Shown: positions 11,266 through 13,624, counted from the first letter of the stretch. The stretch is 64,000 bases of DNA from a virus (IMGVR_UViG_3300031134_000001:64001-128000), one strand, 5' to 3'. Numbers and translations: made by a program. Notes: generated from the letters alone by a model not told the origin.

Positions 11266-12309
11266 ATGAACGCTGTAACCAATTCTGCCCCTAAAGGCAA
11301 AGCCCGTCTGTATGCTTGCGGCGGGGCATCGATTAATATCGTGAGCGGCATTGGCGCGATGCAAATCAATCCTGATCTGCTCGCTGATCTGCTGATTACC
11401 CAAATCGACACCAGCCCATCGAACCTGACGACCCGCTCGACCAGCGTCGAGAACTACCTGATGACCATCGCAGGCAAGGTCGATGGCGGCGGCAAGAACC
11501 GCACCGAGAACGAAGCGCTGATTGAAGAACACGTCAAGCCGATTCTGAAGATGCATCCACCGGGCGACGTGAACATCGTGATCTCTACCGGCGGCGGTTC
11601 GTCCGGCTCGGTCATCGCCACCAAGCTGACCAACGAACTGCTGATCCGTGGCGAATGCGTGATCGTGCTGCTGATCGGCACGACCGGCTCGCGTATCGAA
11701 GCAAAGAACTCGATCGACACGCAGACCAACTACGAGCAGATCGCCAAAGCTCGCAATGCGCCAGCGGTCATGGTTTACATGCAAAACTCGCAGACGATGC
11801 CGCGTGAAAAGGTTAACGACCACATGCGCTCGACGATCATGTACCTGGCCATGTTGTTCTCGCGTCGCAACAGCGGTCTGGACTCGATGGACCTGCGCAA
11901 CTGGCTGTACTTCACTCGCCCAGAAGTGATCAAGGGTTTGACGCCACAGCTGTTCAGTCTGACGGTGCTGCTGCGCGAACATACGCCTGAAGGCGAAGCC
12001 AAGTTCGAAAAAGAACTCGACCAACTCGGCAACATCTTGTCGGTCGCTACCTTGGCCCGCATCGGCGGTCAAACGGAAATGCCGGAAGACTTCATGCCGG
12101 AGTACCATACCGAAGGTTTCGCTCCGGACATCAAGGACAGCAAAGTCTTTGATACCCAATCGGTGAACTTCGTGATCAGCGATGGTCTGGTACAAGGGTT
12201 CGTCACGGAACTGCGCAAGTTTGCCAAGCGCGAAAAACCGCAGATCAACACATCGACGCTGTTGGCAGACAGCGAAGATGATGACGACGCGCCTACGGTT
12301 AATTTCTGA
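11266..12309 (+). CDS. phuZ: phage tubulin PhuZ (FtsZ/tubulin family)
   Basis: YACGGASINI N-terminal loop, IDTS, tubulin signature TGGGSSGS, acidic C-terminal tail; 347 aa. Confidence 0.9.
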   Translation: MNAVTNSAPKGKARLYACGGASINIVSGIGAMQINPDLLADLLITQIDTSPSNLTTRSTSVENYLMTIAGKVDGGGKNRTENEALIEEHVKPILKMHPPGDVNIVISTGGGSSGSVIATKLTNELLIRGECVIVLLIGTTGSRIEAKNSIDTQTNYEQIAKARNAPAVMVYMQNSQTMPREKVNDHMRSTIMYLAMLFSRRNSGLDSMDLRNWLYFTRPEVIKGLTPQLFSLTVLLREHTPEGEAKFEKELDQLGNILSVATLARIGGQTEMPEDFMPEYHTEGFAPDIKDSKVFDTQSVNFVISDGLVQGFVTELRKFAKREKPQINTSTLLADSEDDDDAPTVNF

Positions 12310-13037
12310 TACCGACATGGATATAGCCATCATCGGCGGCGGTGGTGGATGGTTAGGAACCGCTCTTATAAGAGCACTCTGTGGCGGCTTGGGTCGGACA
12401 GTAGAGATCGTGAAGCTTTGTGACTGGGTAAACAAATGGTCGTTTACTCATCAACATGAAGTCATGTACGGTCTATGCAATTATGAGAGCGGGGTTTACG
12501 GCGCGGGTTGCATAACCCCGTCACATCACGTTCAACAGCCCGAGCGGGCACTGGCACACAGTAAGGGTCTGTGTAAGCCTGTGATTGTCTCCGCCAACGG
12601 CCAAAGATAATGTGAACAAAATAAACCTCCGGTTATTAATAGCGCAAGTTTACGGGACTTGTAGCTAAACTTATCCCATTTAGATAAGTTTTCGAACCAT
12701 CCAAGCCTATCCGCTGCGCGCGGTATTAAGCGTCTGCCCGACGTTTGTCTGAGTCCGCAACATCGAAGACGCTTTCCTTTTACACCGCCAGCACATTGAT
12801 TCATGAATCAACAGTGTTGTGTTAGGTGATCTGCGGAGGTTGTCCTAGAACCGGATGATCGGACGTTAAACGAAGTAAACTTGGGGGCGGGACGAGCGAA
12901 GCTTTGCGAAGAGAATCACTCAGGCATGAGTGGGCGAAAATCTCTTTGCCAGCATTAGAACTCCCTTCCCCCCATTTCATCCCACTTACCTAACCGTTCT
13001 CTTCGGAGAATAATTAGGTAAGTGGATTCATTTTTTT
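12310..13037 (+). ncRNA. putative large structured non-coding RNA, family unknown
   Basis: ~720 nt with no typical phage ORF; at least 12 helices, including long-range pairs 12346-54/12695-703 and 12624-31/12834-41; ends in a long hairpin plus T7. Strand inferred from the terminator. Confidence 0.6.
12982..13037 (+). terminator. intrinsic terminator closing the structured region
   Basis: CCACTTACCTAA...TTCTC-TTCG-GAGAA...TTAGGTAAGTGG followed by ATTCAT7. Confidence 0.7.
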
Positions 13038-13111
13038 ATGCCGCCACAGTGAAATATCACAGTAGGTAAAAACGCACTAGAAACGCTTCTAAGCGTTATT
13101 TTACTTGGCGG

Positions 13112-13624
13112 GTGTATTGTATACGTAACGCCGTCAAAAGGCCCCCAATGGACCATAAACAACGATTGCAGCGATCTGTTTGGGTGCTCGACATCAACGA
13201 TTACATTTTGTACTTGGAAGACTGCCTTTACCGCATCTCACCCAAGTTTCCGTGGTTGTTAGATAGCCAGCCAATTGATCGTAATTGGACGTGGCAACAC
13301 ACAGATCGTTTTACTGTAGACAAGACCCAGCGAGATTACTTGATCGACTGGATCATCAAACACTTCTTGCGTGAAGTCTATCACTTCGATACCGGTAACG
13401 ATTGGAACGAAGACTTTCACGATGTTTTCAATGTCTTGTGTAGTGACTACGCCCTGCACGAATCCACCAAATACTACCTGAGTATCCCGCACGTCTACGG
13501 CGACATCTTTACTCCTCAGGTATTCCGACAATCTTGCTGGGTGTATATCGAAGCGGATATCGACCCACAACAACAAAAGATTCCAATCACACATGCCCTA
13601 CCCAAACCCATCACGCCAGCTTGA
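13112..13624 (+). CDS. hypothetical protein (170 aa)
   Basis: GTG start (uncertain); first gene of a tightly packed operon. Confidence 0.65.
   Translation: MYCIRNAVKRPPMDHKQRLQRSVWVLDINDYILYLEDCLYRISPKFPWLLDSQPIDRNWTWQHTDRFTVDKTQRDYLIDWIIKHFLREVYHFDTGNDWNEDFHDVFNVLCSDYALHESTKYYLSIPHVYGDIFTPQVFRQSCWVYIEADIDPQQQKIPITHALPKPITPA

Follow-up and report, generated by a model that had tools for sequence, protein, structure and literature searches.

A candidate family of large, structured and partly coding phage RNA downstream of phuZ in nucleus-forming jumbo phages

Directly downstream of the tubulin-like gene phuZ, between its stop codon and a terminator ending at position 13037 of the window (the whole stretch of DNA analysed, 64 kb taken from an IMG/VR virus record that is 271 kb long and has terminal repeats), we found an element that is conserved on the + strand, holds helices maintained by compensatory changes, keeps a short reading frame open and is present in RNA libraries. 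Judging from sequence comparison, it probably represents a new family of large phage RNA that is partly coding. The reading we favor, to which we assign a probability of roughly 55%, is that the element is a structured 3' RNA tail of the phuZ unit, alternating between translated and closed forms and selected mainly for its fold over its protein. Structured RNAs of this size (>400 nt) are known from bacteria and phages in no more than about a dozen classes. Such classes have each opened new biology once their partners or 3D architecture were found. The RNA biology of chimalliviruses, i.e., RNA export from the phage nucleus and escape from RNA-targeting defences, is an open question; here, a covarying element with invariant blocks predicted to be accessible is fixed beside the chimallivirus spindle gene, and presents a case in which one set of nucleotides conserves both an open frame and an RNA fold.

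The gene upstream of the element encodes a divergent PhuZ tubulin, whose sequence is 31-37% identical to the annotated PhuZ/tubulin proteins of jumbo phages (tblastn); by PhuZ, the nearest cultured relative is Burkholderia phage FLC9. The element itself sits between complete genes, and no host gene is interrupted. Upstream, all relatives as well as FLC9 keep the same gene order, in which a minus-strand 269-aa DUF7484 gene comes first, followed by a variable gene of large size (550-988 aa) and then by phuZ. Downstream, the next start codon (13148) lies 110 nt past the terminator and has conserved motifs of its own: this interval (13060-13147) carries a conserved hairpin (AACGCTTCTAAGCGTT), ATTTTACC and CGTATTGTATACGTAA, and comparison with the relatives places the start of the next gene most likely at ATG 13148 (MDHKQRLQRSVWVLDINDY...) and not at GTG 13112. 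Other PhuZ clades have different genes at the element's position. One such distant clade in IMG/VR (L151-L154 and L159) has a different short ORF overlapping the end of phuZ (..IPAWCCNWW..), followed by an acyl-carrier-protein-like gene (IEERVKAIVSAQLQV...) that replaces the structured element. An earlier annotation of this DNA, made from the sequence alone and referred to here as the sequence-only reading, had tied the element to the spindle/nucleus locus; a functional link of this kind is not supported, the invariant gene order being its sole ground.

The same annotation had suggested looking for homologues downstream of phuZ and examining them for covariation. We gathered 15 distinct homologues from phyllosphere, straw, dairy, wastewater and other metagenomes using a PhuZ protein-database search, contig look-ups, and pattern and profile scans. 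Their PhuZ proteins are 54-87% identical to that of the window (protein search), and in all 15 a block of 600-750 nt separates phuZ from a conserved gene of ~150 aa, with the gene order unchanged. A direct PhuZ back-translation scan of IMG/VR gave no match, and the pattern of the conserved block E6 (Table 1) matched 3 IMG/VR contigs and had no match in collections of metagenomes or genomes; CCATTTC..CTTACCTWA, a looser pattern, proved non-specific and was dropped. Searching 50,697 GenBank phages by blastn with the region and with its conserved half yielded no match even at E<=10. The family comprises 15 sequences in about 11-12 lineages, of which 12 representatives entered the swap tests described below, and the power for the weaker helices (E1, H2 and P1) is modest because of these small numbers.

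When folded, the 728-nt stretch reached -264 kcal/mol, compared to -219 ± 6.6 kcal/mol for dinucleotide shuffles (z -6.9), and its reverse strand gave a z of -6.5. A 735-nt piece of phuZ coding sequence, used as a control, scored z 0.01, and therefore the excess structure belongs to the stretch and is not a genome-wide property; the strong folding relative to shuffled controls on which the sequence-only reading depended was thus borne out (z -6.9 against 0.0 for phuZ). Scanning the whole window with the Rfam 15 covariance models at their gathering thresholds returned no match in any family, and relaxing the cut-off to E<=10 over 12200-13200 returned only four chance-level matches (miRNA, snoRNA and PhotoRC models), far under threshold. 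Membership in GOLLD, ROOL, OLE, HEARO or raiA was ruled out by the lack of a covariance-model match. Likewise, ARAGORN found no tRNA or tmRNA gene within 12000-13400, and group I/II introns, RNase P and known ribozymes were set aside, having no Rfam match here and no interrupted host gene. The element's dissimilarity to tRNA, tmRNA, RNase P and introns, noted by eye beforehand, was hence upheld, and of the proposed affinity to large ornate RNAs the size and complexity are in range, while membership in the OLE, ROOL and GOLLD classes is excluded by the covariance models.

Table 1. Coordinates in the window of phuZ and of the features of the element.
Feature	Position	Strand	Basis or remark
phuZ (tubulin-like), gene upstream of the element	11266..12309	+	tblastn; homologues P0002-P0013; folding control
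Short ORF, 97 codons (MDIAIIGGGGGWLGTALIRAL...)	12317..12610	+	ATG start; open in all 15
P1 5' strand, long-range closing helix	12333..12367	+	within Gly-rich ORF codons; RNAduplex, swap test
P1 3' strand	12681..12720	+	has conserved CCAUCCGCUGCG; overlaps H2 5' arm
E1 hairpin (GCCC GAGC GGGC)	12538..12549	+	homologue folds, swap test
E2 hairpin: outer stem, 2-nt 3' bulge, inner stem, loop UAAGGG	12550..12582 (pairs 12553-79)	+	ORF end; covariation
E3 variable insertion: two local hairpins, conserved block CCUCCGGAUAUUAAUAGCGCGAG	12583..12690	+	alignment
H2 hairpin (CCGC UGCGC GCGG)	12711..12723	+	all homologues; swap test
Junction UAUUARG, H3 hairpin (12728-34/12740-46, pentaloop URYYC) and conserved tail UUGUCYGAGUC	12724..12757	+	covariation
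S3 variable spacer, holding palindrome 12796-12811	12758..12849	+	unalignable across clades
E6 near-invariant 30-mer GAUSAUCRGACGUUAAACGAAGUAMAY, predicted mostly unpaired	12852..12881	+	identity, accessibility
3' domain, multi-helix: Pa 12882-87/12969-74, Pb 12889-92/12962-65, Pc 12901-03/12951-53	12882..12974	+	individual folds
3' domain inner helices: Pd 12906-14/12941-49, Pe hairpin 12916-22/12927-33	within 12882..12974	+	
Two-tier terminator hairpin (12+6 bp) and U-run	12982..13037	+	fold, homologues
Conserved UUUUUUAUGCCGYC spanning terminator end	13031..13045	+	all 15, FLC9, L158

The stretch had been described as gene-free and as a ~720-nt non-coding RNA. It is not purely non-coding, because its first ~300 nt carry a conserved short ORF whose start is coupled to the phuZ stop; what remains of the gene-free description is that, once this 97-codon ORF (12317-12610) is subtracted, 12611-13111 is still the longest stretch of the window without an ORF of at least 100 aa. 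The ATG of the short ORF lies 8 nt past the phuZ stop in the window and overlaps that stop in most relatives, in most of which gene callers had annotated its counterparts. The frame is open in 15/15 homologues, at lengths of 87-136 codons. Dinucleotide shuffles put the chance of its staying open at 0.01-0.09 per lineage, and since the shuffles keep it open in just 1-9% of trials, the open frame is under selection. At the protein level, uncorrected pN/pS values were 0.5-0.7 over the first 45 codons and about 1 over the rest, compared to 0.2-0.5 for phuZ in the same pairs. Between clades, the ORF DNA is 55-64% identical, near the baseline for unrelated sequence, and phuZ DNA is 70-78% identical. 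The N-terminal 45 codons, where constraint is mild, show a strand/Gly-rich loop/helix pattern resembling hhhhGxGxxG...hhhhD, and the ORF may yet encode a genuine small protein. A Pfam search with the product gave no match, no relatives of it were found outside the clade, and AF2 gave no confident fold (pLDDT 46). By these comparisons, the product is weakly constrained and fast-evolving. In the strict sense, only 12611-13037, which has no conserved frame, is non-coding, and 12317-12610 is not.

Two smaller observations concern this part of the element. A mini-ORF at 12612-12668 (GTG AAC AAA ATA AAC CTC CGG ..., VNKINLRLLIAQVYGTCS) overlaps the conserved block CCUCCGGAUAUUAAUAGCG, and begins with ATG-AAA-ACC-ATA-GAC (MKTIDLRILIA...) in L004, L007, L138 and L009; it is confined to homologues that carry the insertion E3, and its conservation may be at the level of either the peptide or the RNA. 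In addition, GAAGCTTTGYGA occurs twice, in the ORF body (12412-12423) and in the CGAAGCU motif of the 3' domain (12898-12909), which is either chance or possibly the trace of a duplicated internal helix-loop module.

We examined the helices in two ways. E2 and H3 were scored for covariation on tool-made alignments, and further elements were subjected to a swap test, in which each lineage's 5' arm was paired with its own 3' arm or with the 3' arms of other lineages (12 representatives). E2 was paired in 99.1% of cells, with compensatory changes at 5/8 pairs (0/500 shuffles; slid controls, 12-45%), and its swap test gave -13.1 vs -6.8 kcal/mol; H3 was paired in 100% of cells, with compensatory changes at 5/7 pairs (0/500 shuffles; slid controls, 30-47%). 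Six further elements, i.e., E1, H2, Pa, the inner 3' domain, the terminator and P1, are backed by swap tests. Pairs are thus kept by compensatory changes across independent lineages, as in a candidate new structured RNA family. Five of six elements tested fold better as the + strand (in 8-11/12 lineages), G-U pairs being the source of the difference; the exception is E1, for which the + strand was better in 2/12 lineages. The claim of a structured element conserved at the RNA level on the + strand was in this way supported, by compensatory changes in E2 and H3 and by the swap tests.

P1, the long-range helix, takes in a 9-bp pair noted earlier (12346-54/12695-703) and is found by RNAduplex as an interrupted helix in every lineage, with 17 near-continuous pairs in L014. 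With their own partners its arms reached -33.2 kcal/mol, compared to -28.2 kcal/mol with swapped ones (0/5000 permutations); the variable part alone gave 29/5000, and control windows gave 611 and 2366 of 5000. In other lineages P1 is rebuilt with different sequences, such as GGCUGAGAG/CUCUCAGCC, UUAGGGG/CCCCUAA and UUAUUAGG/CCUAAUAG. RNAalifold returned no consensus for the joined P1 arms, because the register shifts between lineages, and the support for P1 therefore consists of the duplex and swap tests. The 3' strand of P1 and the 5' arm of H2 share nucleotides, which makes the two helices alternatives to each other. H2 is a hairpin of 4-7 bp in all homologues, built from two unrelated stems (CCGC/GCGG vs CACGU/ACGUG; swap test, 32/5000 permutations). 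E1 forms a 4-5 bp hairpin with differing stem sequences in 12/15 homologues and is weak in L014, L015 and L140 (swap test, 23/5000 permutations); a phyllosphere metatranscriptome contig carries a compensatory C>G/G>C change in it. The 25 codons that end the ORF contain both E1 and E2. The variable insertion E3 is carried by 9/15 homologues and is reduced or absent in the others.

Downstream of the ORF there is no conserved frame, yet blocks of 20-50 nt are conserved at the level of phuZ or above. Notable among these is E6, with 76-92% identity to the window's copy, compared to 70-78% for phuZ DNA; it is predicted to be accessible, with a mean unpaired probability of 0.57 vs 0.33 overall (12 lineages). 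Sites complementary to E6 in the genome of the phage numbered 59, with about 50 expected, and so did not exceed chance. A putative pairing of UUGUCYGA with the UCRGAC of E6 is broken in L007 and L006. For the palindrome TTGATTCATGAATCAA (12796-12811), in the spacer preceding E6, L004/L137 have CTGATTCATGAATCAG, a version that differs at both ends and is again a palindrome; the other clades lack it. The 3' domain shows the same architecture in the individual folds of all 15 homologues, and its internal loop CGAAG / CAUUAGA is common to 13/15. The swap tests gave 0/5000 for Pa and for the inner 3' domain, and the pair types in Pa were AU:7 GC:6 GU:1 CG:1.

The element ends in an intrinsic terminator, a hairpin (12982-13025) of -25 kcal/mol followed by U7, which is kept in 15/15 homologues. 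Its DNA is as conserved as that of phuZ or more; the stem is unusually conserved in sequence with a few compensatory pairs, its swap test lies, like those of Pa and the inner 3' domain, within 0-2/5000, and the + strand was favored in 10/12 lineages. No conserved antiterminator pairing was found, either by eye or by column scan. UUUUUUAUGCCGYC, across the terminator end, is the sole exact copy in the 64-kb window, and UUUUUUAUGCCGY also occurs in FLC9 (L144, 4683-4697) and in L158 (4966-4980), whose PhuZ proteins are just 31-37% identical. The downstream unit may have its promoter or start site in this motif, which could otherwise belong to the 3' end of the RNA; late promoters of phiKZ have a TATG motif.

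These comparisons also sort the pairings that had been read by eye. All eight long-range and crossing pairings are complementary, seven of them perfectly (6/6 to 9/9, ungapped) and 12882-92/12961-74 at 9/11; each local hairpin folds, neither palindrome has a mismatch, and the sequence ends in the hairpin and U-run described. The 15 homologues back 12346-54/12695-703, 12538-49, 12556-74, 12882-92/12961-74, 12906-14/12941-49, 12917-32 and the terminator. Other proposals did not hold up: the crossing helices at 12474-12519, taken for a pseudoknot or switch, are confined to the closest relatives, and so is the conservation of the palindromes that were thought to drive multimerisation; the pairing 12624-31/12834-41 is uncompensated even in the closest relative L139 (CCGCC opposite unchanged GGAGG); and 12728-35/12767-74 competes with the strongly covarying H3.

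The element is also present in RNA libraries. A 608-nt contig from a phyllosphere metatranscriptome covers 12367-12972 at about 95% identity, a 260-nt contig from a freshwater metatranscriptome covers 12706-12965, and altogether three metatranscriptome studies hold the core of the element, all as assembled contigs that give no strand, ends or level. The position past a stop codon and the terminator agree with a putative stable RNA derived from a 3'UTR, which would in addition accumulate as a discrete species with a processed 5' end. For phuZ, the metatranscriptome search returned a 151-nt low-depth piece only, and because phuZ diverges faster in the same relatives and would be missed at a likeness cut-off of 85%, a higher abundance of the element's RNA compared to phuZ mRNA is only suggested.

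Taken together, these results are best accommodated by the following model. The RNA (~700 nt here, 600-750 nt in relatives) would constitute the 3' part of the phuZ transcription unit, and ribosomes finishing phuZ would enter the short ORF, whose start abuts or overlaps the phuZ stop. P1 (12333-67 with 12681-720) would close a domain consisting of the rest of the ORF, E1, E2 and the variable insertion, after which H2, H3, the variable spacer, an accessible E6, the multi-helix 3' domain and the strong intrinsic terminator would follow in this order. Translation of the ORF and formation of P1, E1 and E2 would be mutually exclusive, and this, along with the overlap of P1 and H2, is why the RNA could be either open (translated) or closed (compact). 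In the translated form, ribosomes arriving from phuZ would melt P1, E1 and E2, leaving H2 free to form, and the compact form would be nuclease-resistant and accumulate as a stable RNA. E6, the UAAGGG loop and the CGAAG/CAUUAGA loop may then bind a putative protein or nucleic-acid partner.

A further possibility, which we put forward tentatively, is that one subclade of the nucleus-forming jumbo phages has a new large ornate RNA class of its own, homologous to the equally structured gap after PhuZ in FLC9. Such an RNA would act in trans as a stable RNP scaffold or decoy through its invariant 30-mer and loops, and would also be a micro-protein message whose translation toggles the fold. Examples of trans roles would then be the handling of phage mRNA outside the phage nucleus or the countering of RNA-targeting host defences.

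The main rival, which we regard as rather unlikely, is that the element works purely in cis, be it as a long structured 3' UTR governing the stability or timing of the phuZ/short-ORF mRNA, as an insulating terminator, as a processing platform or as a leader or attenuator of the downstream gene, with no function in trans. This would agree with the flanks of the element, which are a stop codon and a terminator oriented alike, with the terminator and UUUUUUAUGCCGYC being the most widely conserved parts (reaching FLC9 and L158), and with the E6 search, which found no trans target in the phage genome above chance; 3'UTR-derived species are moreover known in phiKZ and PAK_P3 (PMC8545117, PMC10914365). 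However, covarying helices and invariant unpaired 20-30-mers take up about 500 nt, far beyond the requirements of a stabiliser or terminator; past the terminator, conserved motifs that belong to the downstream gene precede it; and the Rfam riboswitch models gave no match to the element.

The remaining explanations fit the data poorly. It is improbable that the region is essentially protein-coding, i.e., that it exists for the 97-aa ORF, perhaps with the mini-ORF, and that its RNA structure is incidental or merely tunes translation. The frame kept open in 15/15 homologues, its coupled start, its hhhhGxGxxG...hhhhD-like N-terminus and an N-terminal pN/pS of 0.5-0.7, which is not far above that of phuZ at equal distances, are what such a function would predict, but the ORF stops at 12610 and the strongest conservation and covariation lie downstream, where no frame is conserved. 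Within the ORF, moreover, the C-terminal half has a pN/pS of about 1, the product has no Pfam match, a pLDDT of 46 in AF2 and no homologues outside the clade, and in FLC9 the frame over the G-rich run differs, giving WWW in place of GGG.

Very improbable is a function at the DNA level, for instance as an origin of replication, as a site for packaging or recombination or as an array bound by proteins, with the palindromes and hairpins acting in DNA. The palindromes (12362-75 and 12796-811) are indeed exact and both strands fold well (z -6.9 and -6.5), yet the palindromes are unconserved across clades, the many G-U pairs become A-C mismatches on the other strand, so that the + strand is better in 8-11/12 lineages (E1, at 2/12, excepted), and the element is present in RNA libraries. 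We give next to no credence to the idea that chance has preserved, beside phuZ, the decayed remains of a mobile element or self-splicing intron, or the pseudogene of an enzyme of the Rossmann type, since, for all the likeness of the N-terminus to a truncated dinucleotide-binding motif and the coming and going of the insertions E3 and S3 among lineages, compensatory changes and invariant blocks persist in phages whose PhuZ is just 54% identical, and therefore reflect purifying selection, while Rfam gave no intron, ribozyme or transposon-RNA match and no flanking repeats exist except one 12-mer.

Returning to the structured 3' RNA tail, a probable counterpart exists in FLC9, and would make the element directly testable in a cultured phage. 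FLC9 has an unannotated gap of 770 nt after PhuZ (gp11; LC667451 7020-7789, L144 3985-4754), which folds with a z of -9.3. Similarly to the element, this gap shows the same gene order, a UAAGGGA-loop hairpin with a 3' bulge, the motifs CCGAAGCU ... GCACUAGGA, a G-rich run (GGUGGUGG) with its complement CCACCACC about 350 nt downstream, and a long terminal hairpin followed by UUUUUUUAUGCCGU. It differs in that some motifs come in another order and its ORF reads the G-rich run in a different frame (WWW, not GGG), and it gave no significant nhmmer or CM match, the model R1 of the 3' domain being marginal at 9.7 bits, all of which leaves homology plausible and undemonstrated. R1 found one copy in the phage's own genome and no match in phiKZ, RTH11, LucasX or nine more distant PhuZ loci. 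In L158, a contig more distant still, the hhhhGGGG start of the ORF and the UUUUUUAUGCCGY tail motif are kept, and an nhmmer search with the 15-sequence profile aligned the UUUUUUAUGCCGU tail only.

In phiKZ, 55 nt separate PhuZ (PHIKZ039) from PHIKZ040, and there is therefore no positional counterpart of the element; the phiKZ ncRNA named '5'UTR gp40/p40' was considered as a positional homologue and rejected, as it belongs to the locus tag PHIKZ_p40, located elsewhere. Virulent Pseudomonas phages do carry UTR-derived ncRNAs of 90-210 nt with two stem-loops, i.e., 3'UTR_PHIKZ298 and the 5'UTR of p40 in phiKZ, and ncRNA1 and ncRNA2 in PAK_P3 (PMC8545117, PMC10914365). Each of these phage RNAs ends at the terminator of an mRNA and accumulates as a structured species, as would the element in the model above. 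phiKZ is also a chimallivirus. None of these ncRNAs has sequence similarity to the element.

GOLLD (RF01998), ROOL (RF03087) and OLE (RF01071), large ornate RNAs of bacteria and phages whose architecture is either unknown or a recent discovery, resemble the element in being 500-700 nt long and phage-carried, with many covarying helices and invariant unpaired blocks. Unlike them, the element has no covariance-model match even at E<=10, occupies a narrow range (one clade of uncultured nucleus-forming phages), holds a conserved ORF inside and is fixed beside one gene, phuZ, and not beside tRNAs. In this last but one respect it recalls the dual-function RNAs, both coding and regulatory, of which Staphylococcus RNAIII/hld and SgrS/SgrT are examples. 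The frame of the element differs from theirs in its length of 87-136 codons, in its coupling to an upstream gene and in its overlap with conserved helices, and its translation and target are only putative; what it has in common with them is a long structured RNA that contains a short frame, with structure conserved past the coding part.
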